The notes beneath the pieces are model-generated. The model made no database searches, was not told where the DNA came from, and saw only the letters and a program-made list of their open reading frames with translations. A stretch of 64,000 nt of DNA, from UHGV virus genome UHGV-0179803. One strand, 5' to 3'. Shown here in pieces: positions 28,409 to 57,208 of the stretch (position 1 is the first letter of the stretch; every line of letters starts with the position of its first letter). Position numbers and translations under genes: made by a program. This stretch comes from a virus.

Positions 28409-29797
28409 GTGGGAGAACATACTTATGAGATTGGCACGGATGCCGCTCTCGCCGCTGTGTTATGTGGTGAAAACGTCTATATCAGCGGACCTGGCGGGAC
28501 CGGGAAGACTCATCTTTTACAAGATATACAGTCTTTACTTGGCGAATCCTGTATGGTTGTTGCCCCAACAGGGGTAGCCGCGCTTAACGCGGGAGGTGTT
28601 ACCGCACACAGAGCTTTTGACCTGTCAGCAGGTGTGACTGTCCCAGAAGACTTCACAGAGATTCGTTCTAAAACAGCAAAACCTCTCAAAAGTAAAGCGC
28701 TACGGACTTTAGTCATTGATGAAGTGTCTATGGTCCGTGCGGATAAGTTTGTGGAGATGGATAAGAAACTCCAGCACCTCCGTAAAACCAGTGAACCTTT
28801 CGGAGGTTTACAGGTGATCATGTTTGGGGATTTCTACCAGGCACAACCTGTTATCTCTACGCAAGAAAGGGAGGACTACTACAAATATTGGGATACTGAC
28901 CTTTGTTTCTATACCCAATCGTGGAAAGATCTTAATCTGAAATGTGTTGCCCTTGTGGAGCAATTCAGGCAAGAGTCAATCCGGTTTGCCACAATGCTGA
29001 ACTGCGTTCGTGAAGGTAGGAGAACAGGCGATGTGGTTAAAGAATTAAACTCTCGTTGTTACCACGGGGGGCAGGCCTCTGATGCTATCATCCTTTGCTC
29101 AACCAACAAAAGAGTGGAGGAGATAAACAGAGAGTTCTATGACCGTATTGATGGTGAGGAGAGGATGTATAAAGGGACGCTGAAAGGTAAATTCCCTCCC
29201 AATCAGCTACCTGTGGAAGATTTGATGTGCCTTAAAGTGGGAATGAAAGTCATGATTGTTGCCAACGACCTTAATCCTAATCACAAAGTTCCTTGTTATG
29301 TTAACGGTTCTCGTGGCACAATATTAAAATTCTATGATGATAAGGTTGACATTGAACTAGATAATGGTACACTTGTGACTGTACCTAAAAAGCTATGGGA
29401 AAGCTACGAATACAAACCGTCCCTGAAAATGGATTGGAAGGCTCGTAAACAGAAAAGAGTGATTGAGAGAATAACCACAGGGTCATTTGAACAGTTGCCT
29501 TTGAAGTCTGGATACGCGTACACAATTCACAAAAGCCAGGGTCTTACGTTAGATGCCTATAACTTGGATCTTGGTAAGAGAGGCGCATTCGCAGCGGGAA
29601 TGACTTATGTTGCTCTTAGTCGTGCTAAGAAAATTCAGAGCATTACCCTCTTGCGTCCTGTCAGAGAAAGTGATATTATTGTAGACCCAAGAGTGGTACA
29701 GTTTTACGCTGATACGTTCCCGGGGTTGGATGAAAAAGTAAGAAAAGATCTTGAAGTCAAAGTTAAAAAGGAGGCCGAGAATGAGTCTACTGGCTAA
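28409..29797 (+). CDS. SF1 DNA helicase, Dda/RecD/Pif1-like
   Basis: 462 aa; GTG start after AAGGAGG; Walker A GPGGTGKTH; VIDEVSMV; FGDFYQAQPV; C-terminal YAYTIHKSQGLT and ALSRA motifs. Confidence 0.8.
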   Translation: MGEHTYEIGTDAALAAVLCGENVYISGPGGTGKTHLLQDIQSLLGESCMVVAPTGVAALNAGGVTAHRAFDLSAGVTVPEDFTEIRSKTAKPLKSKALRTLVIDEVSMVRADKFVEMDKKLQHLRKTSEPFGGLQVIMFGDFYQAQPVISTQEREDYYKYWDTDLCFYTQSWKDLNLKCVALVEQFRQESIRFATMLNCVREGRRTGDVVKELNSRCYHGGQASDAIILCSTNKRVEEINREFYDRIDGEERMYKGTLKGKFPPNQLPVEDLMCLKVGMKVMIVANDLNPNHKVPCYVNGSRGTILKFYDDKVDIELDNGTLVTVPKKLWESYEYKPSLKMDWKARKQKRVIERITTGSFEQLPLKSGYAYTIHKSQGLTLDAYNLDLGKRGAFAAGMTYVALSRAKKIQSITLLRPVRESDIIVDPRVVQFYADTFPGLDEKVRKDLEVKVKKEAENESTG

Positions 29798-30936: not shown

Positions 30937-31406
30937 TTTACGAAAGTGACTATATCTGGAAGATTGGCCCTGCTGCACAAGATCTGATTGAAGTGCCACG
31001 GGAAACGCTACAAAAAGCTGCTTTTAAGTTCCGTGATCTTGCAGTGATTGGTAACAGGATCCTGAAATATCTTAAAAACAAACGTTATGTTGAAGAGAAG
31101 TTCTTCGGATTGATCAAAAAAGAAACTACAGTATGGGAACACTACTTGAAAGAGTCTCAGAGCTTCTATGCTGGGCTGGGCGTAGCTCAGATGGTGATGC
31201 ATGACGGTTACATCAACCCAACTGAAATGCGTTGCCTACGCTACGCTATAAGCGATTACCCTGGGTTCCTGAAGTATCATTTAACTGGCACAGCCTCTGA
31301 AAAGATTTATCTGACAGAGGAACATTTCGAACAACTGAATAAAATTTTAAACATAGACTTGACATTAGTCTCAACAGAGTATACAATTGGGATTCGTGTC
31401 GAGTAA
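30933..31406 (+). CDS. hypothetical protein
   Basis: 157 aa; ATGA overlap. Confidence 0.5.
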   Translation: MIYESDYIWKIGPAAQDLIEVPRETLQKAAFKFRDLAVIGNRILKYLKNKRYVEEKFFGLIKKETTVWEHYLKESQSFYAGLGVAQMVMHDGYINPTEMRCLRYAISDYPGFLKYHLTGTASEKIYLTEEHFEQLNKILNIDLTLVSTEYTIGIRVE

Positions 31407-31411
31407 TAACA

Positions 31412-31437
31412 GCCCTGCCCGAAAGGGCGGGGTTTTT
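31412..31437 (+). terminator. intrinsic terminator
   Basis: GCCCTGCCC-GAAA-GGGCGGGG hairpin followed by TTTTTGTGTTT. Confidence 0.65.
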
Positions 31438-31458: not shown

Positions 31459-32193
31459 ATGAAGCAAGGTGTAGTGTGGGCTTTATTCAATGGCTCCGAT
31501 ATTGCTGTCAAACCCTGGGCTGATGCAGGGTATTTGTGCTTCTGCTTCAATGCAGAAGGGGCAGATCACGGGAGCTATGCAGAGGTAGTAGAAGAACATC
31601 CCAACATTAAGTACATAGATTACTGGATTGACCCGTGGTTCCCACAAGAAACCTTGGGGATGTATCCTGCACCAGATTTCATCCTGTCGTTTCCACCATG
31701 TACCCACTTAGCGGTATCTGGAGCAGCACATTTCAAGAAAAAATTACAAAAAGATCCGTTGATTCAGGTCAATGCTGTAAAAGATGCACGTATTGCAGAA
31801 ACATTGGGTAACATGTATAATTGTCCGTGGCATGTGGAGAACCCTGTTGGGGTTATGTCTAATATGTGGCGTAAACCAGACTACAAGTTCCATCCGTCTG
31901 AGTATGGTGGCTATCTGCCGGAAGATGACCAGAACCCGTGGTTCCCTGACCTGATTAAGCCCAGAGATGCTTATCCGAAGCTAACCTGTGGATGGTTTGG
32001 GAATGGTTTTGTTGTCCCTGAGAAACGACCTGTGCCGCAGATTTGTGATGTAAATGGGTATTCTTTCCAACATACCAAACTGGGAGGAAAATCTCCTCGT
32101 ACCAAAATGATCAGAAGCCTGACACCTCGTGGTTGGGCATTAGCCGTGTTTGAAGCCAACGAACCCGTTGTAAGGAGCAAACTCAATGGTTGA
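31459..32193 (+). CDS. C5-cytosine methyltransferase-like protein (minimal, no obvious target-recognition domain)
   Basis: 244 aa from ATG after GGAGGG; motif I-like LFNGS, motif IV SFPPCTHLAVSGAA (Pro-Cys), motif VI HVENPVG (ENV), in the order and spacing expected for C5-MTases. Confidence 0.5.
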   Translation: MKQGVVWALFNGSDIAVKPWADAGYLCFCFNAEGADHGSYAEVVEEHPNIKYIDYWIDPWFPQETLGMYPAPDFILSFPPCTHLAVSGAAHFKKKLQKDPLIQVNAVKDARIAETLGNMYNCPWHVENPVGVMSNMWRKPDYKFHPSEYGGYLPEDDQNPWFPDLIKPRDAYPKLTCGWFGNGFVVPEKRPVPQICDVNGYSFQHTKLGGKSPRTKMIRSLTPRGWALAVFEANEPVVRSKLNG

Positions 32194-32857
32194 CTGGAGC
32201 AAATATTTCACCTACAGTGACGGTAAACTGTTCTGGGCGTATACCGCAAAAGCCGGAAGAGGCAGGGTTATACATCACGCAGGCGAGGAGGCCACAGGTA
32301 CAGACACAGATGGCTATAGGGTGATAAGTGTGTCAGGTGTTGGACGTGTTAGTAGGCATAGAATAATTTGGGAGATGCATTACGGGGAGATACCTGAAGG
32401 CCTTGTTGTGCGGCACAAGAACGACATAGCAGGCGATGATAGGATAGAGAACTTAGTCCTAGGAACACAGGGAGATAATGTACGAGACATGATCTACAGT
32501 GACAAATTGAACATTAACAATACCTCAGGGTGTCGAGGTGTATGCTACCATAGGGGTGTAAAAAGATGGATTGCATCTGCTGGAGACATATATTTAGGAT
32601 GTTTTAAGACAAAAGAGGATGCAATTACATGCAGAAAGTTATGGGAGGAGGGAAAATTCGTCCCGCAAGAATTAGATGTTAGAAATACCAGCGGTGTAAC
32701 AGGGGTGTTCTATGTGCCAAGCTCTGGAAGGTGGAGAGTTAGAGTACAAAGTGGCAAAAAGAGAAAGAGCTATGGTAGTTACAACACTTTAGAAGAAGCA
32801 AGAGCTGTAAGGGACAGAGTGATGAAAGAGATTGAGGAGTCTAAAGATGGGGAATAA
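32186..32857 (+). CDS. HNH homing endonuclease with AP2-type DNA-binding repeats
   Basis: 223 aa; HNH_3-like GYRVISVSG...RVSRHRIIWEMHYG...VVRHKNDIAGDDRIENL; two AP2-like repeats (TSGCRGVCYHRGVKRWIA, TSGVTGVFYVPSSGRWRV). Confidence 0.75.
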   Translation: MVDWSKYFTYSDGKLFWAYTAKAGRGRVIHHAGEEATGTDTDGYRVISVSGVGRVSRHRIIWEMHYGEIPEGLVVRHKNDIAGDDRIENLVLGTQGDNVRDMIYSDKLNINNTSGCRGVCYHRGVKRWIASAGDIYLGCFKTKEDAITCRKLWEEGKFVPQELDVRNTSGVTGVFYVPSSGRWRVRVQSGKKRKSYGSYNTLEEARAVRDRVMKEIEESKDGE

Positions 32858-35800
32858 GTTTATACCCTCTGCGTATAGTCGTTATGGGGAACCGAACCCA
32901 GTTGCAACAAGATACAAAAGCGGAGGCAGTATGGCACGAGACTATCGTGATGAAAAAGAGGTTGAAACTGTAGAGACTGTTTTAGAAAATACTAAAATTG
33001 TCCCTGTTCCACAACAAAATATCGGACTGACGGCTGCACAATATTTCGGTGTGCGATCAGCATTGTCCCAAGAAGATGGTGTGACAGTCGTTGCAACATA
33101 TTTCCCATATTACAACCGCTACGGCAATCTATCTGGCTTTAAAAAGCGTGATTGGTCTAAGCCAAAAGAGCAGAAAGGGCACTGGTCTGTAGTAGGCATT
33201 GTTAAGGCCAACAGCCAGTTCTTCGGTCAGAAAATGGTTGGTGAAGGCTCAGACCATCGTAAAATCATTGTCTGCGAAGGTGAAGGCGATGTTATTGCTG
33301 CGTGGCAGACTGAATGGATGATGGTCAGGAAAATAGCTACAGACCCGTCATCAAATAAGAAAGCTAAAGCGTGGGCACAAAGCGTTCTTGACGGTATTAA
33401 AGCCGTGCAGGATGGTGGTTCTGCTAAAGGTTTTCCCACAATTAACGTGGTAGGGCTTAATTGTGGTTGTGCGAATGCCGTAGACGCTTTTGCCAACAAC
33501 GAGAAGTTTATTCGTGGCTTTGATGAGATTGTCCTGGCCTTCGATAATGACGCTGCAAATGATGTTGAGAAGCTAAAACATGTCACCAAAGGTGTTGAAG
33601 CCACTCACAATGTTGCAGCTTTCCTGATGGCTGACAACGTTTTCCATGTGCAGTATCCGAGCGAGGTAAATGATCCAGAGGGTTACAAAGATATCCGTGA
33701 TTTGTTCCAGGCTAAAAAGTATGATCAAATTCACGATATGTTCAAAAACCCGATCAAATACGTGCCAGACGCTGTAGCAGGCCTGAATGATTTCTCAATT
33801 GAAGATTTACGTAAAAAATCCACCAATGGTGTTGACATTGGGGCAGAGTTCCCTAAACTCCAGAAAATGTTGAAAGGTTTGCATAAAGGCACACTGGTCA
33901 TGTTGACTGGCCCTTCCGGCGGTGGTAAGACTACGGTAGCTAAGAAGATTGAGCACCAGATAGCTAAATACCTGATGGATCCTACGGTGGCTAAAGCTGA
34001 TGACTACGACCCCGAAGACAGGTTGTGTATGATTCACCTGGAAGAGGACCCAGAAGAAGCCATCAACTCGCTGTATGCTAACCAGCTGGGGTATGATATC
34101 AAGAATTTCATGGAGGACCCAAGCAAGTATCTGACCGAGCAGGAACACTTTGAAATCCACAAAGCCTGGGTTGATGCTGATAAAATCAGAGTATTCCGGC
34201 ACTTCGGTTCAATACCTGTAAACGACCTGATCACCAAGCTGAAACAGATGGTGTGCTTGTATCATTGTCGTTACATCGTACTGGATCATCTGTCAATGGT
34301 TATTTCTGGTTTGAATGTAAAAGATGAGCGTAAAGAGCTGGACCTTGCAATGACGCAGCTTGCAGCATTCTGTAAGCAATTCAATGTGTTCATTTTGGTG
34401 ATTGCACACTTACGTCGTACAGAGATTATCCCACCGAAGGATAAAGAAGGTAGGGCTTTACCGTTCTGGTATCCTGTCCGTAAAGAAAACCTTCGTGGTT
34501 GTGTTTCTGCGGACACAGAGTTTTTAACCCCGCAGGGGTGGAAACGCATAGATAACTATGCAGAAGGGGATTTGGTTGCGCAGCACGATGAAAATGGCGT
34601 AATGACTTTCGTAACCCCGAAAGCCTACATCAATCTTCCTTGCGAAGAAATGTGGCATGTTTCCAACACTCACGTTGTAGACATGTTGTTGAGCGATGAA
34701 CATCGTGTTGTATATGTGAATGACAGAACGCCAGATGTTTTCCGTACGAAAACCATGTTGGAAGTTGTCTATGACCACAACAACAAGCCTTCAGGTATGC
34801 GTGGGAAAATACCTGCTACGTTCCTCACAGGGTGCAATGGGACGCTGGGGTTGACTGATGACCAATTACGCCTACAGGTTGCTGTAAATGCTGATGGGAC
34901 AGTTCTTACTGAGTCAACAGGAAGAGTGGCTGTGAGAATCAAAAAAGATCGGAAAAAACAACGTCTCGAGATGCTGCTGGAGAAAACAAACACCACTTAT
35001 AGGCGTCTTGATTTGCACGGGGTGCACGAAGGACGCACAGAGTACCAATTTAAAGCACCGTGTGGGTATAAAGGTGTGACTGGGGAATGGTTTAATCTCA
35101 AACAACACGAGTTGGAGATTATCTGTGATGAGGTTATGTATTGGGACGGAGATTCTGTGAACAAAAACAGGGTGTCCACCATTAACAAACTTGAAGCGGA
35201 CTTCTTACAGTTTGCCTACAGCGCCTGTGGACATAGAACATCTTTATCCATGAAGGAGAACAACAGTGGCTTTGGCGGTAGTTACAACTGTAAACCTTTG
35301 TACGAGGTAAATGTTTGCAATACTAAGTACATGCATATACGCAAAGGTAGTAATAACAAACCCTCTATTGAACGTGTACCTTCCCCAGATGGACGTAAGT
35401 ATTGCTTTACGTTACCGTCGGGTATGTGGGTGGCGCGCCGCAATGGGCATATTTTTATCACAGGAAATTCGGGGAGTATGGAACAACTCAGTTGGGTTGT
35501 CATAGGGGTAGAAGCAGAAGAGATGCCTGACAGGTCCCGTGGGCGTGTCCGTTTAGTTAGCCTAAAAAACAGGCCAGCTAAAACCTTGGGTATCGCTGAT
35601 GTGCTGATTATGAACCCTGAGACTGGTAAATTCTCCGATGCCAGTGACTGGGTGTGGGATAAAGAGACAGGTTTCTTCCTGAACAAAGATGGGGATATTG
35701 TCTGGAGGCCACAAGATATGTTCGACAATGAAGAACATGTTGTTGTGGAAACTCCTGAAGGTAAGGTTACCGCCGATGTGAAACCTCAACCAAAATCTGT

Positions 35801-35888
35801 TGACGCAGAAGGGGAAGAAGATGATGGAGTGGATGATCAGAGTGTAATCCAACAGGAGTTCCCTGAGGATGAAGATTGTCCGTTCTGA
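32847..35888 (+). CDS. primase-helicase (TOPRIM primase plus DnaB-like helicase), interrupted by an intein
   Basis: TOPRIM IIVCEGEGDVIAAW and LAFDNDAAND; Walker A LTGPSGGGKTTV; helicase motif split as ENLRG / SGSMEQLSWVVIG around a 323-aa insert. Confidence 0.8.
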   Translation: MGNKFIPSAYSRYGEPNPVATRYKSGGSMARDYRDEKEVETVETVLENTKIVPVPQQNIGLTAAQYFGVRSALSQEDGVTVVATYFPYYNRYGNLSGFKKRDWSKPKEQKGHWSVVGIVKANSQFFGQKMVGEGSDHRKIIVCEGEGDVIAAWQTEWMMVRKIATDPSSNKKAKAWAQSVLDGIKAVQDGGSAKGFPTINVVGLNCGCANAVDAFANNEKFIRGFDEIVLAFDNDAANDVEKLKHVTKGVEATHNVAAFLMADNVFHVQYPSEVNDPEGYKDIRDLFQAKKYDQIHDMFKNPIKYVPDAVAGLNDFSIEDLRKKSTNGVDIGAEFPKLQKMLKGLHKGTLVMLTGPSGGGKTTVAKKIEHQIAKYLMDPTVAKADDYDPEDRLCMIHLEEDPEEAINSLYANQLGYDIKNFMEDPSKYLTEQEHFEIHKAWVDADKIRVFRHFGSIPVNDLITKLKQMVCLYHCRYIVLDHLSMVISGLNVKDERKELDLAMTQLAAFCKQFNVFILVIAHLRRTEIIPPKDKEGRALPFWYPVRKENLRGCVSADTEFLTPQGWKRIDNYAEGDLVAQHDENGVMTFVTPKAYINLPCEEMWHVSNTHVVDMLLSDEHRVVYVNDRTPDVFRTKTMLEVVYDHNNKPSGMRGKIPATFLTGCNGTLGLTDDQLRLQVAVNADGTVLTESTGRVAVRIKKDRKKQRLEMLLEKTNTTYRRLDLHGVHEGRTEYQFKAPCGYKGVTGEWFNLKQHELEIICDEVMYWDGDSVNKNRVSTINKLEADFLQFAYSACGHRTSLSMKENNSGFGGSYNCKPLYEVNVCNTKYMHIRKGSNNKPSIERVPSPDGRKYCFTLPSGMWVARRNGHIFITGNSGSMEQLSWVVIGVEAEEMPDRSRGRVRLVSLKNRPAKTLGIADVLIMNPETGKFSDASDWVWDKETGFFLNKDGDIVWRPQDMFDNEEHVVVETPEGKVTADVKPQPKSVDAEGEEDDGVDDQSVIQQEFPEDEDCPF
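34500..35468 (+). mobile_element. intein (323 aa) within the helicase domain
   Basis: Starts CVSADTEFL (block A-like Cys1); ends NGHIFITGN followed by Ser +1; flanking extein residues reconstitute a DnaB-type RG-SG motif; size allows an endonuclease domain. Confidence 0.65.
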
Positions 35889-48384: not shown

Positions 48385-48729
48385 ATGAAAAACCGTACAC
48401 ATCCGCTCTATCTTCGAGAACGTAATAGTATTGCTATGGTACTGTGCGATATCTTCAATGTTTCAGATCCGTACGATACTCACAATATGTGGGAGACAGC
48501 ACGCATCCTGTTCCCAACACCAGTGATTGTAGCCATCTCAAAGAATGGCTTGGTGAAAAGAGCATGGGATAAGTTTGGGCAGTCTTACGTCTGGGCTGAT
48601 CAACTGGGGTGCTGGTTTGAAGAAAGAAACCCTGTTAGCCTGAACAATGAACGTATGCGGGGAATTGATATCATCACGGGCAAAAACATTCGCCTGAAAG
48701 GCGAGATTGTTTTCTGGCTTCCACAATAA
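48385..48729 (+). CDS. hypothetical protein
   Basis: 114 aa. Confidence 0.5.
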   Translation: MKNRTHPLYLRERNSIAMVLCDIFNVSDPYDTHNMWETARILFPTPVIVAISKNGLVKRAWDKFGQSYVWADQLGCWFEERNPVSLNNERMRGIDIITGKNIRLKGEIVFWLPQ

Positions 48730-48741
48730 CAGGAGAGATCA

Positions 48742-49083
48742 ATGAAGAATCAAACAGTAACAATGCAATGGGTAGATGTTGATGGCGTGGAGAACATGCC
48801 AATCGGTGTATATTTCGTATGTATGCGGGACTGTAATGGTCTGCAACAATATGGTGTATGCGAAGTTGTTATGGCTGGGCAGGGCAAATATGCACATAAA
48901 GTTGGCGTGATCAGTGGTCAATTTTATTTTGAATTCCCACCAATCGTAGCATACATGGTTATCCCAGACTATGTGCCGATTCAGGACGGAAAACGCCGTT
49001 GCCCACACTGTGGTAGCACTGATATCGGTATGGCGCGGGACGATTTATTCTGCTTCTGCTGCCGCCGTTTCCTGGTGGAATAA
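48742..49083 (+). CDS. hypothetical protein with C-terminal zinc-ribbon
   Basis: 113 aa; CPHCGS...CFCCRR pattern at C-terminus. Confidence 0.5.
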   Translation: MKNQTVTMQWVDVDGVENMPIGVYFVCMRDCNGLQQYGVCEVVMAGQGKYAHKVGVISGQFYFEFPPIVAYMVIPDYVPIQDGKRRCPHCGSTDIGMARDDLFCFCCRRFLVE

Positions 49084-49093
49084 GGAGTGTACT

Positions 49094-49288
49094 ATGTTCG
49101 AGCTTAAATCTTGCACAATCGTAGCACCAGGGGATCGTATCCGTATCCCAGGCCGTCACGAAATCCTACAGGTTAAAAGCATCGAGTCTGTAGGTAACCG
49201 TGTTCTCCTGTTCAAATTTGAAAATGGACACCAGGTGTACATGAGAATGAGAAGCAAAGTGTACATTGACAGGGGTGCTAAAGAATGA
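49094..49288 (+). CDS. hypothetical small protein
   Basis: 64 aa from ATG after TAAGGAG. Confidence 0.45.
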   Translation: MFELKSCTIVAPGDRIRIPGRHEILQVKSIESVGNRVLLFKFENGHQVYMRMRSKVYIDRGAKE

Positions 49289-49611
49289 ATGAAGTATGGG
49301 AAATCTGTGTAGACGTAGCAGGAATCACGCTTATAGGTGCTCTGGTTATTGCTCTGGCGCTGGTAGGATACAAGATGGCACTTCTGCCTTTCCTGGAAGC
49401 ATTCAGCCTGTGTCATTGCTGGCGTAGAGCATATGGACCACAACCTGTAAAAGACTGGTTCACTTTGTACCGTATTGCACTATCTTACACGTTTGATCAT
49501 TCACGCTTAAACTGCATTGAAAGCTATCATGCTGATGGTTGGTGGTGGGTAGGATTATTCAGATGGGAGGTGACAGAGGTAACTCCGAAACGAATGCTTA
49601 AGAAAAATTGA
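49285..49611 (+). CDS. membrane protein
   Basis: 108 aa; hydrophobic N-terminal helix (VAGITLIGALVIALALVGY); ATGA overlap. Confidence 0.5.
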   Translation: MNEVWEICVDVAGITLIGALVIALALVGYKMALLPFLEAFSLCHCWRRAYGPQPVKDWFTLYRIALSYTFDHSRLNCIESYHADGWWWVGLFRWEVTEVTPKRMLKKN

Positions 49612-49939
49612 TTTTAGAATTATAAAAGTTTTAGATGACAAGGGGAAATCTGTAATAGATTTTCCCTTATTTATCAGATATTTGCAGATATTTGAAAATC
49701 ATTAGAAACTTAGGTAATTAGGAGCGTACGAAAATGGATTTTTTAAAAGCATAAGCAATCATTTAGCAAATTAGCCAAATAGATTTTAGCCTATTGCTAT
49801 TGTGTATGCATGTATTTGCATATGCCTTGCACATATCCCCACACACCTCTTCCCACATTCCCACACAGTTCTCGGTTGACCCGCCAATCTCCCCTCCACA
49901 ACTCTCCCAGTAATTTCCTTAAGTACTCGATCTGTTTTT

Positions 49940-50047
49940 CAAAATCGAAATCGGATTCTGAAAATCTCGACAGCTTTTCTCCTCGGTTCTCGATAGGTTT
50001 TTTATTTTCGATTTTGGATTCTGGATCTCGGTCTGGTTCTGGCTAGG
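49940..50047. repeat. direct repeats of a GG(A/T)TTCTG-type unit
   Basis: tcggattctg, cggttctcg, tggattctgg, cggtctgg, tggttctgg within about 110 bp of non-coding DNA. Confidence 0.5.
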
Positions 50048-50185
50048 CCTGCGCCTGAGGAACGAAAGCACTTTTTTATTTTTGAAAGTGGATTTTGAAT
50101 TTCTATATAGAAAAAATTTACCCCCTACCATTTTTGGTAGATAGTCACGGTACGTAATTAGCCTGCTAACTAAATTTTAGATAGT

Positions 50186-50380
50186 TTCATGAGTGATTAT
50201 CACCGTTACTATAAATTGCCGTAACTATAAATCACCGTGCGTTACTATTTTAATTTCACCATGCAACTATAAATCACGGGCCGTTATTATTTATATAGAA
50301 AACTATTACTAACCGTGCGTTATTACCTCAATTTGCTTAGGTTACTATTAATCACCGTAAGTAACTATTTTTTAAATGAT
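50186..50380. repeat. iteron array, ~9 units at ~20-bp period (candidate origin or regulator-binding array)
   Basis: Units such as GTAACTATAAATCACCGTG, GTTACTATTTTAATTTCACCATG, GCAACTATAAATCACGGG, GTTACTATTAATCACCGTAAG spaced 15-22 bp. Confidence 0.65.
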
Positions 50381-50399
50381 AATCATTCTCAAAATATAT

Positions 50400-50700
50400 T
50401 GCGTGCATCCCCGGTGATTGTCTCCCGGCCCCTGGTGCCCCGGCTTGATTATATAATAACAGATCCGGCCCCCATGTCAACAGCTTTTTTAGAAAAATAT
50501 TAGTTACAACATCCTGGCGCCACCTGGCAGGGCCATCATGACCATGATCCGGTCCGGCGCTTGCGCCCTGGTCCATCCTCCGCACATTAGTTACAGCATT
50601 CCAACGACCGATCCCCGATAGTCTGCAACCTGGCGGGGCCGCCTGGTCCACTGGACCGCCTCCCCTGGTCCGGTGGGGAGTCCGGCTTGCAATTCAAAAT
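50400..50700. other. GC-rich island of palindromes rich in CCTGG
   Basis: GGTCCACTGGACC palindrome, CTCCCC...GGGGAG and GGCGCTTGCGCC inverted repeats, about seven CCTGG sites in about 250 bp, inside otherwise AT-rich non-coding DNA. Confidence 0.5.
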
Positions 50701-50732
50701 GTGATCTGTGTCAACCTTTCACCATGTAGCTA

Positions 50733-50760
50733 TTGATCAGGTTACGGCCTAGTGTATTCT
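50733..50760 (+). promoter_or_regulatory. sigma70-like promoter of first micro-gene
   Basis: TTGATC-16 nt-TATTCT. Confidence 0.45.
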
Positions 50761-50828
50761 ATAGGTGAAGGGAAACAAAGGGGAAACGGAAAGCAAAACA
50801 CCAGGCCGCAAGGCAGGAGGAAAATAAA

Positions 50829-51005
50829 ATGAAAGGCATGGTTAACAACAACAACGTAAAAGAGAGGGAAATTATTGTTAATGGTCGTGAGATTGACAAT
50901 AAACGCCGGAAAGCTATGCGTGATGCCCTGGTCAACTGGTTGGATTATGAAAAAATGATGGTAATGGCAGCGGGTGCCGCAGCTGGTGAATTTAACCACA
51001 GATAA
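50829..51005 (+). CDS. micro-gene product (58 aa)
   Basis: ATG after AGGAGGAAAATAAA; below ORF-track cutoff. Confidence 0.4.
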   Translation: MKGMVNNNNVKEREIIVNGREIDNKRRKAMRDALVNWLDYEKMMVMAAGAAAGEFNHR

Positions 51006-51021
51006 CCACAGGGGGGCAAAG

Positions 51022-51216
51022 GTGTTAGCTTATAATCTTCCAGGCCGTCGCCGTACGGTTGCCGACCAGGTAACGGCAAAGGCAGACGTAACAATCAACA
51101 ACGGGCAGGGCCTTTACAAGTTTAAACGGGGGAACAGCTATACGATCCAGTTTCTTAACCGTTGTGCTTTAACACCTGGTCAGATCAACCATTGGTTTAA
51201 AGCTAAAAAATTTTAA
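51022..51216 (+). CDS. micro-gene product (start uncertain)
   Basis: GTG after AGGGGGG; ORF-track frame 50974..51216. Confidence 0.35.
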   Translation: MLAYNLPGRRRTVADQVTAKADVTINNGQGLYKFKRGNSYTIQFLNRCALTPGQINHWFKAKKF

Positions 51217-51224
51217 AAAATTAG

Positions 51225-51255
51225 TTGACACCAGAAAGAAATAAAGTATTATAGA
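51225..51255 (+). promoter_or_regulatory. sigma70 promoter
   Basis: TTGACA-17 nt-ATTATA followed by conserved GAAAGCAGTA box. Confidence 0.6.
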
Positions 51256-51301
51256 TAGTGAAAGCAGTACACAAGGTTAACAAAATATAAGGAGTAACAT
51301 C

Positions 51302-51703
51302 ATGAGCGCTTTTAACACTGATTTCGATTTCTCTGGTCTGGAAGAAGTTCGCGATCTTCGTAACTGCCGCCGCGAAAACGGTTTTTATAAATCTCTGGAC
51401 CTGGTGGCACTGGACCACAAAATGGACCTGGAAGAAGTAGCAACGATTCGTTTCTACCAGTCACCGCGCGGTAACACTGTTTACTGTGTAGTATGGGTAC
51501 ATGAAGCAGGGCACGAATTTTATGCCACTGCTGGCGGGAAAGCTGGTGGCTATGGTTACGATAAAGAGGAGGCCGCATTACGGGAAGCTATCGAGGCGAT
51601 GGGTGTAAAAGCTGGCGATTATGCTCACCCTGAAAAATTTTTAATCCAGCTTGCTCGCTACTTCGGATATGAAAAAGCTAAAGTGATTGAAGCACACGCA
51701 TAA
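51302..51703 (+). CDS. hypothetical protein
   Basis: 133 aa; AAGGAG upstream. Confidence 0.55.
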   Translation: MSAFNTDFDFSGLEEVRDLRNCRRENGFYKSLDLVALDHKMDLEEVATIRFYQSPRGNTVYCVVWVHEAGHEFYATAGGKAGGYGYDKEEAALREAIEAMGVKAGDYAHPEKFLIQLARYFGYEKAKVIEAHA

Positions 51704-51744
51704 GCTGCCTTTTAGATGGCCCCCTGGTGGGGCCATTGATAAAG
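51704..51744 (+). repeat. conserved intergenic hairpin element, copy a
   Basis: GCTGCCTTTTAGATGGCCCCCTGGTGGGGCCATTGATAAAG directly after a stop codon. Confidence 0.5.
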
Positions 51745-51780
51745 GTAACTTGGGGCAACAATAACCGAGAGAAAGAAAAT

Positions 51781-52215
51781 ATGAAACGTTTACCACGCTG
51801 GATCCGCTTTATTAATAAACTTGCCGCAGATGAAAAAATCCAGGCTATGCATAAAGATAACCGCGAACGCCGTGCTGCCTTACGAGATTATCGCCGCATG
51901 TTGGCAAAGTTAGCCAATAAAAATGGCGTTCTTAAACCGTTCCGCAAAGTGATCCACCTGGTCGCTATGGGAGCGCCTAAGGTGGCAAACGTTCCAAACG
52001 TCCATAAGATTGATGACCGCGACGTTGTAAGAGATATTGATAAAGATTTTTCTCCGAAGGCCATCAATCAGCGGATCAACAGCTGCAAAAATAAGAAAGA
52101 TCTTGATAATTTGTTAGATAGCCTCGACGCTTTAGGGTGTGATTATGATTTCTTAGATGACAAGATTAATAAAAAATACCGCGAATTGGCTGGTTATCGC
52201 GTCAACCGGATTTAA
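51781..52215 (+). CDS. hypothetical basic protein
   Basis: 144 aa from ATG (MKRLPRW) after GAGAGAAAG. Confidence 0.5.
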   Translation: MKRLPRWIRFINKLAADEKIQAMHKDNRERRAALRDYRRMLAKLANKNGVLKPFRKVIHLVAMGAPKVANVPNVHKIDDRDVVRDIDKDFSPKAINQRINSCKNKKDLDNLLDSLDALGCDYDFLDDKINKKYRELAGYRVNRI

Positions 52216-52428
52216 CATATCAGAATAGTTGGCCCTGGTGGATCCGATCCGTGCACGGTCCAGGGTATGCCCGAAAACCTCCCCCATTACGCCGCTACGC
52301 CTGTTTTGAAGGTGTGGCGGTGTAGTTGCACCTCTTTGCAAAACACCTCGCCATAATACTTATTTGATGCCTTATTTTCGATACGCTCAAATAATGACCA
52401 ATCAATCGCCCCCACCATGATTTTTTTC

Positions 52429-52456
52429 TTGCAATCCCCCAATGTATGAATACAAT
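52429..52456 (+). promoter_or_regulatory. sigma70-like promoter
   Basis: TTGCAA-16 nt-TACAAT. Confidence 0.5.
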
Positions 52457-52502
52457 AACAATTGAAGGCAGTATTAACAAAAACACAAGAAGGGGAAACA
52501 AA

Positions 52503-52673
52503 ATGGATAAAATCTATTACGTTGTTTATCGCGGCCTTAATGTTGCCTGGTACGACAATTTGGCTGAGGCAATGGAAGAGGCGCACGACCGTTACGACCT
52601 GGGGCGTAACCGCCTTGAAGTGGTGGATAGCGACGGCGTGATCTATTGGTGTAGTGAGGATCTGGAATACTGA
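52503..52673 (+). CDS. micro-gene product (56 aa)
   Basis: ATG (MDKIYYVVY) after AAGGGGAAAC. Confidence 0.45.
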   Translation: MDKIYYVVYRGLNVAWYDNLAEAMEEAHDRYDLGRNRLEVVDSDGVIYWCSEDLEY

Positions 52674-52684
52674 AAAAAAAATAG

Positions 52685-52715
52685 TTGACACGACCGTTTG
52701 AAAGTGTAGTATATA
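52685..52715 (+). promoter_or_regulatory. sigma70 promoter
   Basis: TTGACA then AGTATA/TATATA at 16-19 nt. Confidence 0.6.
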
Positions 52716-52768
52716 AACCGAAGGGGAAAGAAATTTCCCAGAGGTAAAAAACAAAGAGGATAAAAATC

Positions 52769-53044
52769 ATGGCTATCATCGAAAAAGTAAACGTTCCAGC
52801 CACTTATAATAAAGGTTATAACGGTTGGAAAAATTACAATCAGTGGAACGTTGCACTGTGGATCAATAACGACGAAAGTTTATACTTCTTTGCCCTGGGC
52901 TTGATTAATGAGTGTGGCAATAAAGACGCGGCAGCTGATTTGATGGTTTACCGCTTGAAAGAAGAGGGGATCACTCATACGCCTGATGGGGTGCCTTACA
53001 ATAAAACTAACATCCGCGCCGCTATGGTCGGAATGCCGCACTGA
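52769..53044 (+). CDS. hypothetical protein
   Basis: 91 aa; AAGAGGA upstream. Confidence 0.55.
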   Translation: MAIIEKVNVPATYNKGYNGWKNYNQWNVALWINNDESLYFFALGLINECGNKDAAADLMVYRLKEEGITHTPDGVPYNKTNIRAAMVGMPH

Positions 53045-53120
53045 TAGCCGCCTTACCCTGGGGCCGTGGCAGCGCCCCATGAATAAGGTTACTACCCCCA
53101 CAATAACAGGAGGTAACATT

Positions 53121-53231
53121 ATGAACATTATCGCGGCAATCATTGTAGGCTATGCCCTCTTTTTGCTGGGCTTGCACCTGGCGGCAGTTATCAAAGGCCT
53201 GATCGATTTCTTTAAAAAAGATGAAAAATAG
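53121..53231 (+). CDS. small membrane peptide (36 aa)
   Basis: MNIIAAIIVGYALFLLGLHLAAVIKGLIDFFKKDEK; ATG after AGGAGGTAACATT. Confidence 0.4.
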   Translation: MNIIAAIIVGYALFLLGLHLAAVIKGLIDFFKKDEK

Positions 53232-53233
53232 TG

Positions 53234-53261
53234 TTGACAGGTGAGAGAAAATAAATATACT
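53234..53261 (+). promoter_or_regulatory. sigma70 promoter
   Basis: TTGACA-16 nt-TATACT followed by GAAAGCAGTAAAC box. Confidence 0.6.
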
Positions 53262-53311
53262 TAACCATGAAAGCAGTAAACGAGATTAATAAAACACAGG
53301 AGAAAAAGATC

Positions 53312-53722
53312 ATGAAAACTACTTTCCGTAATGCAAATGGTTTAACTGCATTCGCTTTAGCTTGTGGATATGTTCAAATGGTAGAGGGGCGGGATCGTGA
53401 AATGGTGGATCTGTTTAAAGCCCACGGTTGCTACCATGTTCGCGCTTTTAATGCTGATGGCGAGCGGCAAGCATGGTTTAGTGTGCCATCTTTAACTGAT
53501 GCCCGTCGCCATTGGAAAGAACTGGTAAAACTGATTTTCGGTGCACGCATTGCACAAGTGAAACGCTGCAAACGTTACGAAGTGCGCCACGTCCTGGACC
53601 TGAGAGGGGAGGCAGTTTACCAGGTTATCTATCGCTACGATGGGGAGTCTCGCCACGTCGGCTACTGTGAAAACGTGGACGCGGCATGGATGATTGCACA
53701 CCGCGACTATGTAAGCCTATAG
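53312..53722 (+). CDS. hypothetical protein
   Basis: 136 aa from ATG (MKTTFRNANG) after CAGGAGAAAAAG. Confidence 0.55.
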   Translation: MKTTFRNANGLTAFALACGYVQMVEGRDREMVDLFKAHGCYHVRAFNADGERQAWFSVPSLTDARRHWKELVKLIFGARIAQVKRCKRYEVRHVLDLRGEAVYQVIYRYDGESRHVGYCENVDAAWMIAHRDYVSL

Positions 53723-53806
53723 GTTATTTTTCGGTGGCCTGGGTATTGACACCGGGCCATCTATAAAGTAACCTAAAGATCCACACAACGAAGGGGGGGA
53801 ACAATC

Positions 53807-53899
53807 ATGAAAAACTATTCTCACTATTTGATCCGTCGTGATGTTATGATTATGGCCCTGGGCTACCTGGTTATGTTTGCTTTTCGTGTAATGCTGTAA
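53807..53899 (+). CDS. small membrane peptide (30 aa)
   Basis: MKNYSHYLIRRDVMIMALGYLVMFAFRVML; GAAGGGGGGG upstream. Confidence 0.3.
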   Translation: MKNYSHYLIRRDVMIMALGYLVMFAFRVML

Positions 53900-53917
53900 A
53901 ATAAATTAAAAAATTAG

Positions 53918-53946
53918 TTGACACAGTAGCAAAAATAAGTAAACTT
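53918..53946 (+). promoter_or_regulatory. sigma70 promoter
   Basis: TTGACA-17 nt-AAACTT followed by GAAAGAAGTAATTAG box. Confidence 0.5.
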
Positions 53947-53990
53947 AAAACTGAAAGAAGTAATTAGTAAACCACAAAGAGGAAAACATC

Positions 53991-54350
53991 ATGAAACGCA
54001 TCAATAAGGCTATGGCTAACGCAATCCGTGCTTATGTAGTTGACAGCTTAAACTTTGACGACATGGAACACGACAACGACGTTGAGGAACTGAAAGCACG
54101 CTTTGAAGCTGAGCATTTTGACGGCTATTATATCCGTCGCTTTAACGGCAACCGTGTAAAAGCAATGGCCGACTGGTTAGCAGGACTGCCGAGCGGTGTA
54201 GACATTGACTTCTGTAATGATGACATTTTAAACCGCTTGCGTGAGTTCGGAATCATTGACGAAAAAACTAAAGAAGACACTAAAGATCGCTACATTGACG
54301 AATGGTTTGAACTGATGGCGCGGTTTTATGTGGAACTAGCATACAAATAA
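53991..54350 (+). CDS. hypothetical protein
   Basis: 119 aa; AGAGGAAAAC upstream. Confidence 0.55.
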   Translation: MKRINKAMANAIRAYVVDSLNFDDMEHDNDVEELKARFEAEHFDGYYIRRFNGNRVKAMADWLAGLPSGVDIDFCNDDILNRLREFGIIDEKTKEDTKDRYIDEWFELMARFYVELAYK

Positions 54351-54388
54351 AATAGCTTGCTTTTAGATGGCCTCGAAAAAAAAAATAG

Positions 54389-54417
54389 TTGACACGGGGC
54401 CATCGATAAAGTAAACT
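54389..54417 (+). promoter_or_regulatory. sigma70 promoter embedded in conserved hairpin element
   Basis: TTGACA-17 nt-TAAACT; the spacer is the GGGGCCATCGATAAAG arm of the recurrent hairpin element. Confidence 0.55.
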
Positions 54418-54455
54418 AACACACAGTAAGAAGTAACAACAAAGGAGAAAACATT

Positions 54456-54794
54456 ATGAACGCTAACATTGAACTGATTGCACGTCGTGCCGCCCTGGTT
54501 GCAGCTATCGAACAATTGAACAATAAAATTGAAAACTTTGAAATTGATCCAGATGACTACGAAAACGACTACGATGATTTACTAGACGAAGGCGGTGCGG
54601 TAGTGGTAGGCGGTTGCGAATTTCTCCCGTCTAGAATCCTCCGCGAACTGGATCCGATTGCTTATCGTTGCGGCCTGAATGATTATATAGACAACATTGA
54701 TGTAAGCGATGACGCAAACTATTGTGATTTGTGTGACGATCTGGCTGACCTTGAGGCAGAACTAGGGGAAGTCGAGGAAGCGCTACGTAACTAA
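54456..54794 (+). CDS. highly acidic small protein (candidate DNA mimic)
   Basis: 112 aa; about a quarter Asp/Glu, few basic residues; AAAGGAGAAAAC upstream. Confidence 0.55.
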   Translation: MNANIELIARRAALVAAIEQLNNKIENFEIDPDDYENDYDDLLDEGGAVVVGGCEFLPSRILRELDPIAYRCGLNDYIDNIDVSDDANYCDLCDDLADLEAELGEVEEALRN

Positions 54795-54836
54795 GTTGCC
54801 TTTTAGATGGCCTCCCTGGCGGGGCCATCCATAAAG
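54795..54836 (+). repeat. conserved intergenic hairpin element, copy c
   Basis: GTTGCCTTTTAGATGGCCTCCCTGGCGGGGCCATCCATAAAG directly after a stop codon. Confidence 0.5.
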
Positions 54837-54873
54837 ATAATTTAGTGTAACCACAATAAAAAGGAGTTACGCA

Positions 54874-55122
54874 ATGGCAAAATTAATTAACTTTGCAGCG
54901 GTGGACCTGGTAAAAGCTGATTGGTATTATAGCAATGGTCGCGCCGTTTGGTGGCGTGAAGGGGGTGCCGAGGGCAAAGTAAAAGCGCGTATGATTAAAG
55001 GTTACCATTTAGATCGCCCTGTAATTCGTATCAATGGGAAGCTGGTCGCTTTCATGCATATCAAAGCGGTTGACGATATTGAAAAAATTTTGAACGTCAA
55101 CTATTTTAAAATGTTAGGGTGA
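54874..55122 (+). CDS. hypothetical protein
   Basis: 82 aa; AAAAGGAG upstream. Confidence 0.5.
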   Translation: MAKLINFAAVDLVKADWYYSNGRAVWWREGGAEGKVKARMIKGYHLDRPVIRINGKLVAFMHIKAVDDIEKILNVNYFKMLG

Positions 55123-55211
55123 CATGCCAGGCGGGGGCCGTTAGTCCGGCCCCCTCTATCCAACCAGGAGGAGGTGACACTATGCCCAGTTAACAACAGA
55201 GAGGAAAATAT

Positions 55212-55550
55212 ATGGACCTCATGACGTGCATACTCGCATTTATTGCAATAGGTGTAGTCTGGAACAAAGTAAAAAACCAGAGTTATTACGCCAGATGCCA
55301 GGCTTTTCGGGTGAATCCGTGGGATATTGATCCGGGTGCTGATTATGTTATCAAGTACCAGGACCGACACGGCAAACAATATGTAACGCCGTCGCCGATA
55401 CCGGCCTATTGCTTGCTGGAATACACAGACAAGATAAAACAGGCAGGTTTTTTAATTGTTGACCTGTGGGGCCGCCACGGTGACGCGAAAAAATTTATTA
55501 AAGCAGTGGCTGCAAATATTGCAGCACAAGAAAACGACGATGAAGAGTAA
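55212..55550 (+). CDS. hypothetical protein with N-terminal hydrophobic helix
   Basis: 112 aa; GAGAGGAAAA upstream. Confidence 0.5.
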   Translation: MDLMTCILAFIAIGVVWNKVKNQSYYARCQAFRVNPWDIDPGADYVIKYQDRHGKQYVTPSPIPAYCLLEYTDKIKQAGFLIVDLWGRHGDAKKFIKAVAANIAAQENDDEE

Positions 55551-55564
55551 CAGGAGCGCCGATT

Positions 55565-55786
55565 ATGAACATGGTAAACTTTGAAAAAATTACTAAGCGC
55601 AATCATTTATCTGACGAACTACCGGAACGCCGCCAGCGTAACAACAAGCTGAATAAACCGCGTCGATTTGGTAAACTGTGGCGCAACTATTACGACCGTA
55701 ATTTACGCCGCCTGTTACTTGAACGTGAACGCCAACAAATGAGATACGCAGCACGGCGGGAACGGATGAAAGCAGACGAAATTTAA
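55565..55786 (+). CDS. highly basic small protein (Arg-rich)
   Basis: 73 aa; Arg/Lys-rich, nucleic-acid-binding-like composition. Confidence 0.5.
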   Translation: MNMVNFEKITKRNHLSDELPERRQRNNKLNKPRRFGKLWRNYYDRNLRRLLLERERQQMRYAARRERMKADEI

Positions 55787-55792
55787 CCGATA

Positions 55793-55818
55793 GGCCCCCA
55801 GGTGGGGGCCTTTCTTCA
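55793..55818 (+). terminator. intrinsic terminator
   Basis: GGCCCCC-AGGT-GGGGGCC followed by TTTCTTCATTT. Confidence 0.6.
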
Positions 55819-56026
55819 TTTGTAACATAGCGCAATCAATTTTAAGGCCCTTAAAACGCCCTACAACGCAAAGAAGCCTAAAGGTGAACAATTGCATTAC
55901 CCGCCCCCAATTAGTAATTTGTGATCAAGATCTCACAAAAATTAATAGGTAAAAACCTTATTTACTTCTTATAGGATCTGCATACCATTTTAATTGAAAG
56001 AAGAAACACAGCAGGAGGAAAATAAA

Positions 56027-56236
56027 ATGGTCTACTGTGATTATGCCAATGATGCACTGGGCCGCTATGAGAAAGGCCGTTATTATGACCTGAGCGAAAT
56101 AATTGATAACGAGGATTATTACATCGATAAGAATGATGATCATCTAGTCGTTATCCATCGCGTAGTCGATCCGATGTGCTTCGTGGACGTTAGCCCGATT
56201 GTGGCACGCTTTGAAATTATGGTATTGGAGGCTTGA
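56027..56236 (+). CDS. hypothetical small acidic protein
   Basis: 69 aa from ATG (MVYCDYAND) after AGGAGGAAAATAAA. Confidence 0.5.
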   Translation: MVYCDYANDALGRYEKGRYYDLSEIIDNEDYYIDKNDDHLVVIHRVVDPMCFVDVSPIVARFEIMVLEA

Positions 56237-56238
56237 TT

Positions 56239-56340
56239 ATGTTACTTGAAATGCTGATGAATCCGATTATTTCTATGGGCCTGATCTTTGTAGTTGTCTG
56301 CCTGGTTGTTGGTTTTATCTTGAGCAATATGCGGAAGTAA
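56239..56340 (+). CDS. small membrane peptide (33 aa)
   Basis: MLLEMLMNPIISMGLIFVVVCLVVGFILSNMRK; ATG after GGAGG. Confidence 0.35.
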   Translation: MLLEMLMNPIISMGLIFVVVCLVVGFILSNMRK

Positions 56341-56367
56341 AAATTTTTAAAAAGCTATGAAAAAGTG

Positions 56368-56396
56368 TTGACACGGCCCCCCGGTTTGGTATTCTA
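56368..56396 (+). promoter_or_regulatory. sigma70 promoter driving a non-coding purine-rich transcript
   Basis: TTGACA-16/17 nt-TATTCT; no ORF for ~250 nt downstream. Confidence 0.55.
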
Positions 56397-56399
56397 TAG

Positions 56400-56540
56400 C
56401 TGAAAGGAAAAGAAAGGGAACAAGAAGGAAAGTTCCGGGAGCGGGAAAAGAAGGGTAAGGGAAAAGCCTTGAAGCATAGCTAACCGAAGGACCGAGGGAG
56501 CCGGGAGCGGCCCTAAAAGATACTCAAAGAAGTAAAAAGA
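56400..56540 (+). ncRNA. candidate GGA-rich purine-tract non-coding RNA
   Basis: ~140 nt almost entirely A/G with repeated GGA motifs and short hairpins (CCG-GGAG-CGG, GCCG-GGAG-CGGC); promoter upstream, no ORF, next promoter at 56543. Confidence 0.3.
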
Positions 56541-56542
56541 AG

Positions 56543-56571
56543 TTGACAAGGTAACACAAAGCAGTAAAATA
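56543..56571 (+). promoter_or_regulatory. sigma70-like promoter
   Basis: TTGACA-16 nt-TAAAAT; purine-rich leader continues to the next start codon. Confidence 0.5.
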
Positions 56572-56649
56572 AAGTTGAAAGGGAAGGATGCAGGGAGCAA
56601 CAAGGACCGGATAAACCGGGGGGAGCTGAAAGAAAACGAGGAAAATAAA

Positions 56650-56736
56650 ATGAAAGACTACTACAAAGCAAACGAATATGAAAGGGTAGCAGATTTCATT
56701 AAAGAAATGTTAAAAGGTCTGAATAATAAAAAATGA
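56650..56736 (+). CDS. micro-ORF (28 aa)
   Basis: MKDYYKANEYERVADFIKEMLKGLNNKK; ATG after CGAGGAAAATAAA, same start context as neighbouring genes. Confidence 0.3.
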   Translation: MKDYYKANEYERVADFIKEMLKGLNNKK

Positions 56737-56744
56737 GGTGGGGT

Positions 56745-56858: not shown

Positions 56859-56905
56859 ACCTCCCACCACAAAGAAAGAAACAACAACCAAGCGAGGAAA
56901 ATAAA

Positions 56906-57133: not shown

Positions 57134-57138
57134 AAAGG

Positions 57139-57166: not shown

Positions 57167-57208
57167 GATAATCGAAAGCAGTAAACAATTTAAAAGGAGA
57201 ACATAATC

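Follow-up and report, generated by a model that had tools for sequence, protein, structure and literature searches.

Introduction

The putative cytosine methyltransferase gene described in this work lies at positions 31459 to 32193 of a 64,000-nucleotide stretch of viral DNA (UHGV virus genome UHGV-0179803), hereafter the window, and the closest systems with experimental data are two phages encoding proteins that are each 52% identical to its product. In phage KarlJaspers (Bas06; L001 40087-40797), the identity to the Dcm-like protein runs from end to end. Phage K42 is a KarlJaspers strain (Drexlerviridae) whose 711-bp dcm was studied in a preprint in which all escapers from retron Ec86 (Eco1) had this gene lost or silenced, and in which its expression was toxic only in the presence of the retron (10.1101/2023.08.16.553469). 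Liquid chromatography coupled to mass spectrometry (LC-MS) detected high 5-methylcytosine (5mC) in the multicopy single-stranded DNA (msDNA) of the retron with K42 dcm and low 5mC with a C82A/E128A/K175A/K176A mutant or the empty vector, and defence was lost when either C of the CCTGG in the stem-loop of the msDNA was altered (10.1101/2023.08.16.553469). The triggering of the retron by K42 Dcm is cited as established in later papers (e.g., PMC12916289). The second homologue is gp52 of Pantoea phage AAS23, noted as having no BLAST-detectable domains, in a phage whose DNA resists EcoRII and was reported to be Dcm-methylated.

A first-pass annotation of the window, made from the sequence alone, had treated the open reading frame (ORF) as an oddity, which it is not: the same gene is conserved in Vequintavirus, where it is annotated as "Dcm-like C5 cytosine methyltransferase", and the phage family of which it is a member is very large. 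The best explanation for the locus as a whole, and one that we consider likely, is a compact, single-domain, S-adenosylmethionine (SAM)-dependent Dcm-like enzyme (PHROG 757) orthologous to that of Vequintavirus. In the window itself, this explanation draws on the ORF, its motifs, family membership, fold, purifying selection and gene context; for the 52% homologues, others have shown that 5mC is formed on DNA, that this depends on a set of four residues (mutated together, and including the counterparts of the cysteine and the glutamate), that the retron is triggered and that virion DNA resists EcoRII.

Results

The gene and its family

The ORF is read from an ATG at 31459 to a TGA at 32193 and encodes 244 amino acids (aa).

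31459..32193, + strand: gene for a probable compact Dcm-like DNA cytosine-C5 methyltransferase (PHROG 757 family)

Its product matched PHROG 757 ("DNA methyltransferase") over its full length with an E value of 1.8e-81, aa 1-242 aligning to profile positions 12-226 of 247. When 50,697 phage records were searched by tblastn, 1,500 contained a homologue, which covers at least 80% of the query in 1,466 cases; the carriers are mostly phages of Escherichia, Klebsiella, Salmonella and Shigella from several families. A homologue is also present in 240 plasmid or phage-plasmid records. Relatives numbered 1,336 at 90% clustering, and an exhaustive profile search retrieved 2,136 clusters (at 50% identity) with E<=1e-3; with E<=1e-10, the number was 974. 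Because the median length among the best 150 representatives of the profile search is 236.5 aa, the small size of the protein is a trait of a large, mostly phage-borne family and not the outcome of truncation. The window protein carries C81, E127, P146, Y172, W179, P187 and the near-invariant R219/S220 by which members of the family are recognised, and its length falls within their range of about 200-260 aa.

The 2 kb around the ORF are about 83% identical at the nucleotide level to Vequintavirus (rV5-like) coliphages, in which the gene under the match is labelled "Dcm-like C5 cytosine methyltransferase", "DNA cytosine methyltransferase" or "hypothetical protein". The gene is already annotated in relatives, then, and represents a widespread phage family with experimental support in homologues; as far as genome annotation is concerned, it is a routine Vequintavirus Dcm-like methyltransferase. 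In a few members of the family, the compact module was seen behind a 170-200-aa N-terminal extension or within helicase-containing proteins of 1,100-1,400 aa (P0357, P0365, P0386; BFVD A0A6J5SE15, A0A6J5NPY6), and it can be fused to other DNA-handling domains.

Sequence motifs

Conservation was counted over 63 diverse family members. Six residues (C81, E127, P146, Y172, W179 and P187) are invariant, and F78, P79, T82, G88, N128, P129, R138, D170, K174, T176, R219, S220, P223 and G225 are conserved in at least 90% of the members. The segments discussed below are the following.

31483..31500, + strand: motif I region (LFNGSD, aa 9-14), which follows strand beta1 and presumably forms the SAM-binding loop, with Asp14 replacing the usual Gly
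31690..31725, + strand: motif IV, aa 78-89 FPPCTHLAVSGA, with the predicted catalytic nucleophile Cys81 (63/63)
31837..31845, + strand: motif VI, aa 127-129 Glu-Asn-Pro, equivalent to ENV (E127 invariant, N128 59/63, P129 62/63)
31894..32001, + strand: conserved block, aa 146-181 (PSEYGGYLPEDD..PRDAYPKLTCGW), a beta6/beta7 hairpin carrying an insert particular to the family where motif VIII would lie
32002..32082, + strand: short variable loop, aa 182-208, at the target-recognition domain (TRD) position of other C5-methyltransferases, with the lowest conservation among the core segments
32083..32154, + strand: motif IX/X block (GGKS..IRSLTPRGWA, aa 209-232), presumed to comprise the loop that binds the cofactor and the C-terminal helix, helix-loop-helix in the model

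The C5-methyltransferase motifs that the first-pass annotation had noticed are present in the expected order (LFNGS from aa 9, Cys81 within FPPC, Glu127 within ENP), and the PHROG 757 match and the predicted fold bear out that reading of them. In LFNGS (aa 9-13), F10 and G12 fit the pattern FxGxG(G), its second G being Asp14, while the family consensus is FDx(T/S)G with a variable position 12; the region aligned to SLFDGIATG of DNMT3B and TFAGGGGS of CmoX, the C5-carboxymethyltransferase of Synechococcus phage S-B43. Cys81 lies within SFPPCTHLAVSGAA (aa 77-90), and its FPPC aligned to the Pro-Cys motif of CmoX (SPPC), M.HhaI and M.HaeIII (PPC). It is the counterpart of C82 of K42 Dcm, one of the four residues jointly mutated in the inactive mutant; Glu127, in HVENPVG (aa 125-131), aligned to E128 of the same enzyme, and K174 to its K175.

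The C-terminal half is more particular to the family. The insert in aa 146-181 has the consensus EYGGYLPEDDxHPxFPxxIxPRDAYxKxTCxW, and the order of secondary structures in the model would put this block at the place of motif VIII, Lys174 likely substituting for the canonical Arg. In the motif IX/X block, R219 and G225 are each found in 61/63 members and S220 and P223 in 60/63, and the IRSLTP region may correspond, judging from the sequence pattern, to motif X of M.HhaI (GNSV), DNMT3A (GRSWSVP) and CmoX (GRMVPP); it resembles GRSWSVP of DNMT3A. Between these blocks, 29 residues separate W179 from G209 (20-44, median 26, across the family), compared with about 85 residues at the TRD position in M.HhaI. 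There is no separate TRD, and this is a family trait; the first-pass remark that the protein is too short for a conventional one is confirmed. From their position and conservation, the insert of aa 146-181 and the loop of aa 182-208 would together read the DNA.

Predicted fold

The AlphaFold2 model, built with 51 sequences, reached a mean predicted local distance difference test (pLDDT) of 90.1 and a predicted template modelling score (pTM) of 0.90, and it contains seven strands in the Rossmann-type methyltransferase order followed by a C-terminal helix-loop-helix. In a Foldseek search of the PDB, the top matches were solely DNMT3A/3B chains (E about 4e-6), the next ones being DNMT3A, M.HhaI, M.HaeIII, DNMT1, M.MpeI and Dnmt2; all of the top 16 matches are cytosine-C5 methyltransferases and rank ahead of generic Rossmann proteins. 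The best matches in BFVD were 225-aa phage "DNA-cytosine methylases". At the sequence level, the family profiles gave only marginal N-terminal matches in the PDB, to DNMT3B and M.HaeIII (E about 0.7-0.8). The predicted fold is thus class I Rossmann-like with C5-methyltransferase topology, the very fold whose absence the first-pass annotation had named as fatal to its proposal.

Selection on the gene

In the comparison with the orthologue of phage HeinrichReichert (80% aa identity), the proportion of nonsynonymous differences (pN) was 0.135 and that of synonymous differences (pS) was 0.78; pN and pS are given in place of dN/dS, as the synonymous sites are saturated. With pN so far below pS, the whole gene is under strong purifying selection.

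CCWGG sites and restriction-site avoidance

The window holds 159 CCWGG sites (100 CCTGG and 59 CCAGG), 0.85 of the expectation under a third-order Markov model, a mild deficit that is the third lowest among the 32 quasi-palindromic pentamers. Avoidance of six-base palindromes is of another order: 14 of the 64 (AAGCTT, CTGCAG, GGTACC, TCCGGA, GCATGC, GGGCCC, TGGCCA, CGATCG, ACCGGT, CCGCGG, CGGCCG, GAGCTC, GTCGAC and GCCGGC), for which about 130 occurrences were expected, are wholly absent, against only 25 of the 4,032 non-palindromic hexamers, and CTAG reaches 0.37 of its expected count, a pattern of strong restriction-site avoidance. The retention of CCWGG in its midst is circumstantial, being expected if these sites are methyl-protected, or if they are simply not under selection.

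The first-pass annotation had also remarked on a concentration of CCTGG in the non-coding hairpins of this genome. Some GGCCCC-loop-GGGGCC hairpins do carry CCWGG at the apex; the concentration itself did not survive the count, with 11.9% of the 159 sites in non-coding sequence, which makes up 12.0% of the window. CCWGG density does rise 3-fold at 48.5-62 kb, to 5.3/kb from 1.5-2.3/kb elsewhere, and the same region is enriched 8.7-fold in CGGCC, 6.9-fold in GGCCC, 3.7-fold in GGCC and 3.5-fold in AAAAA. With GGCC and CGGCC equalling or exceeding CCWGG there, a link between these hairpins and the methyltransferase was rejected as non-specific. The region 48500-62000 contains many small + strand ORFs at a G+C content of 0.43, as elsewhere, and its k-mer skew arises because GGCCCC-loop-GGGGCC terminator-like hairpins are frequent between its genes (e.g., at 51723, 54815, 55798 and 59818).

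Within that region, about 780 nucleotides (50050-50830) have few ORFs. They include iteron-like, AT-rich direct repeats, CACCGT..TTACTAT(A/T)AAT, in at least six copies (50190-50370), and a G+C-rich part with several short inverted repeats and seven CCTGG in 240 nucleotides (50400-50690). Scans for tRNA and Rfam families in the CCTGG-rich non-coding stretch at 50.0-50.8 kb found no match. The stretch 50050-50830 may represent an origin, or else a region of early regulation.

Gene context and upstream signals

The gene sits among replication genes, the nearest of which are listed here.

28409-29797: PIF1-like helicase
32186-32857, + strand: HNH (PF13392) and AP2-domain homing endonuclease, overlapping the methyltransferase stop by 8 nucleotides
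32832-35888, + strand: primase/helicase

Between the PIF1-like helicase and the methyltransferase are five small ORFs that have no Pfam match, and the homing endonuclease and the primase/helicase follow, with the DNA polymerase further downstream in relatives; this order is conserved in Vequintavirus. In relatives that have no homing endonuclease, the methyltransferase directly overlaps the primase/helicase start. Co-expression with the replication genes would suit an enzyme whose task is to modify newly made phage DNA.

Upstream of the ATG at 31459 there are a GGAGGG ribosome-binding site and a terminator-like hairpin, and a promoter match precedes them.

31359..31387, + strand: sigma-70-like promoter match from a consensus scan, TTGACA-17-TACAAT (11/12), within the last part of the upstream ORF
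31411..31434, + strand: terminator-like hairpin and T-run (10-bp stem, 7 GC pairs) between the upstream ORF and the methyltransferase start

The hairpin has a predicted fold energy of -24.2 kcal/mol (z -3.6), and the sequence of this region is conserved to 79% upstream of the orthologue in HeinrichReichert. A longer, TTG-started ORF from 31387 would cross this hairpin, and 31459 is therefore the sensible start. The promoter match lies about 25 nucleotides upstream of the hairpin, so that both stand just ahead of the methyltransferase start (31359-31434, + strand). The same scan returned 20 matches in the region where 14.2 were expected. The two elements could form a leader or attenuator arrangement, or the promoter match could be due to chance.

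Three further features of the window deserve mention. The homing endonuclease occurs in only some Vequintaviruses and is 91% identical to the HeinrichReichert copy, against 76-80% for the flanking genes, which suggests that it moved horizontally in recent times. The primase/helicase has 1,018 aa compared with 692 aa in relatives, a difference accounted for by a 323-aa insert (aa 557-879; 34500-35468, + strand) inside the DnaB-like domain; outside the insert, the protein is 76% identical to that of HeinrichReichert. The insert begins with Cys (CVSADTEFL) and ends in ...HIFITGN followed by Ser, which in sequence terms is the signature of a putative intein. Elsewhere in the window, there is a cluster of tRNA genes.

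14557-14800, - strand: three tRNA genes side by side, for Met(CAT), Thr(TGT) and Arg(CCT)

Discussion

Taken together, these results lead us to regard the window protein, with considerable confidence, as a DNA C5-cytosine methyltransferase. In the mechanism that we propose, the target cytosine would be flipped into the pocket, where Cys81 (motif IV, FPPC) would attack C6 and Glu127 (motif VI, ENP) would protonate N3, the methyl group then moving from SAM, which the beta1 loop (LFNGSD) would hold together with the IRSLTP loop (R219/S220). DNA would be read by the loop of aa 182-208 and the beta6/beta7 insert, with no separate TRD involved. Because the gene sits in the replication module, the enzyme would act on replicating phage DNA. 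We infer the activity of this particular protein, its CCWGG specificity and its anti-restriction role: the most likely target would be the Dcm site CCWGG, whose methylation would shield the 159 sites of the window from EcoRII-type restriction and stay invisible to McrBC, with the activation of retron Eco1 (Ec86) as a side effect in hosts that carry it. On the strength of the homologues, we incline slightly towards CCWGG as the target; for the PHROG 757 family at large, this specificity is plausible.

Several observations weigh against this interpretation. The hidden Markov model search recommended in the first-pass annotation gave a divided answer, as the window protein returned nothing from Pfam (no PF00145 match even at E<=10), NCBIfam or the PDB sequences, while 27 of 51 close relatives matched PF00145 at E<=1 (best E 1.3e-6) and no other family recurred among them. 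The protein has no QxRxR (motif VIII) and no GNxV (motif X); PRDAYPK (R169, D170, Y172, K174) and IRSLTP stand in their places, and their functional equivalence is only our inference. Position 14 is Gly in 45 of the 63 members (otherwise T, D, A or R), and it is Asp in the window protein. As for the target, CCWGG specificity was assumed from the name of the enzyme in the K42 study, not mapped, and the dcm+ host MG1655 alone showed low msDNA methylation and no firing of the retron (10.1101/2023.08.16.553469), because of which an identical specificity of the phage enzyme and the host Dcm sits uneasily. The EcoRII resistance of AAS23 could come from host Dcm, and a search of the literature on Vequintavirus and CCWGG found no paper and no Vequintavirus methylation data.

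These points have a bearing on the rival explanations. An active enzyme whose target is unlike or broader than that of host Dcm (for example a motif as short as CCW or CC, methylation at the outer cytosine of CCWGG, or a preference for hairpin or single-stranded DNA), owing to the lack of a real TRD, is the rival that we take most seriously, although we think it rather unlikely. It would be in keeping with the mere 20-44 residues at the TRD position, with the fact that the best structural match, DNMT3, reads just CpG with a small TRD, and with the K42 phage enzyme methylating msDNA and firing the retron, neither of which the dcm+ host does, either C of CCTGG being needed. The EcoRII resistance of AAS23, on the other hand, fits methylation of the inner C of CCWGG, the strong conservation of aa 146-181 suggests one fixed specificity, and broad methylation giving RmC (purine-methylcytosine) would lay the phage open to McrBC in many strains of E. 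coli. The promiscuous modifier put forward in the first-pass annotation is likewise not favoured, as the papers on homologues point to Dcm-type methylation of CCWGG that blocks EcoRII; what is left of that proposal is the limited chance, just mentioned, of a broader specificity. Should these enzymes of about 230-250 aa indeed be the smallest natural DNA C5-methyltransferases, reading DNA without a TRD and with a specificity or substrate preference unlike that of host Dcm, which we likewise judge to be a minority prospect, this would account for a retron Eco1 that responds to the phage enzyme yet ignores host Dcm, and the Asp14 lineage could differ further in cofactor handling.

Far less probable is that the window gene is a copy that died or weakened in this lineage through a Gly14-to-Asp change in the SAM loop and was kept for DNA binding or as a decoy. 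Asp14 and Asn11 do depart from the family consensus FDGSG, which is found in 97 of the 120 closest clusters, compared with 6 for FNGSD and 1 for FDGSE; the first 56 nucleotides or so of the gene (to 31515) were unmatched by megablast in the nearest relatives, and the protein falls below every Pfam threshold. Nevertheless, the invariant and catalytic residues are all intact, and position 14 is also occupied by T, D, A or R in other lineages of the family, by Glu in a 250-member Vequintavirus cluster and by Ala at the aligned position in DNMT3B. It is because this position is variable, and because purifying selection on the whole gene is strong, that the reading of Asp14 as the mark of a dead enzyme is weakened. 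Even more improbable is a CmoX-like DNA cytosine C5-carboxymethyltransferase, using carboxy-SAM from host CmoA to produce 5-carboxymethylcytosine and not 5mC. With CmoX, CmoA and CmoY sequences taken from phage S-B43, the N-terminal half of the family does align to CmoX (FPPCTDLAVSG against SPPCSAFSVAG), with FPPC here against SPPC there, and R219 would fall near the place of Asn304 of M.HhaI and R350 of CmoX. Even so, when the family was compared by hhalign with SpCmoX, with an alignment of 25 CmoX members and with M.HhaI, only motifs I-IV were covered, so the C-terminal halves are unaligned and the equivalence of R219 and R350 is one of motif pattern only. Moreover, the 52% homologue gave 5mC by LC-MS, and tblastn of SpCmoA and SpCmoY against the 64-kb window found no match below E 2, nor is either annotated near the orthologues. 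Pro-Pro-Cys was dropped as a mark of carboxymethyltransferases, being also present in the ordinary SAM enzyme M.HaeIII. DNMT3A, which uses SAM and is the best structural match, likewise has an Arg in its motif X (GRSW). Methylation of RNA (Dnmt2-like tRNA m5C) or of free nucleotides instead of DNA is the least credible of all, and the repurposed pyrimidine-C5 enzyme suggested in the first-pass annotation is set aside for the same locus, in view of its Rossmann-type C5 DNA-methyltransferase fold and of a 52% homologue that puts 5mC on DNA.

If the gene encodes, as we think, an active Dcm-like methyltransferase, the prediction is that this phage methylates its own cytosines and is sensed for that reason by retron Eco1/Ec86, which bears on its host range and on the choice of phages for therapy. 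The phage appears to join two anti-restriction strategies, the loss of many 6-bp palindromes and 159 presumably methyl-protected CCWGG sites. The family is also of interest as a very compact C5-methyltransferase scaffold, for its presumed specificity and for a mode of DNA recognition that would do without a TRD.

Comparison with known systems

The systems to which the window protein can be compared differ widely in their closeness to it. SpCmoX of Synechococcus phage S-B43 (PDB 8yf3) has 372 aa, a full TRD and a strong PF00145 match, and adjoins CmoA and CmoY, traits that are all absent from the window protein or its locus. The catalytic domains of DNMT3A and DNMT3B are only 11-16% identical to it, and DNMT3 has CpG as its target and functions, with regulatory domains, as a hetero- or homotetramer. 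E. coli Dcm has about double the length and a full TRD. Compared with it and with M.EcoRII, the window protein has no TRD and no Pfam (PF00145) or NCBIfam match, yet would share their chemistry and probably their target, going by the papers on homologues; because PF00145 is not matched, "Dcm-like" is to be understood as a functional label and not as close kinship.

The Dcm of K42/KarlJaspers is a much nearer relative, with its full-length identity, its similar size (236 vs 244 aa), the same motifs and PHROG family, and C82, E128 and K175 in alignment with C81, E127 and K174. It belongs, however, to a siphovirus and not to an rV5-like myovirus, in another gene neighbourhood; its K176 is Leu here, its motif I reads FDGSG where the window protein has FNGSD, and activity was shown for the K42 enzyme only. 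The Vequintavirus enzyme (HeinrichReichert bas58_0073, LL12 CPT_LL12_214) is the orthologue, with about 80% aa identity and in the same place, flanked by the small ORFs that lie downstream of the PIF1-like helicase on one side and by the primase/helicase on the other. The window protein differs from these orthologues by an N-terminus 10 residues shorter and by GSD in place of GSG, and, because the synonymous sites are saturated with respect to them, it represents a distinct lineage of the same enzyme.
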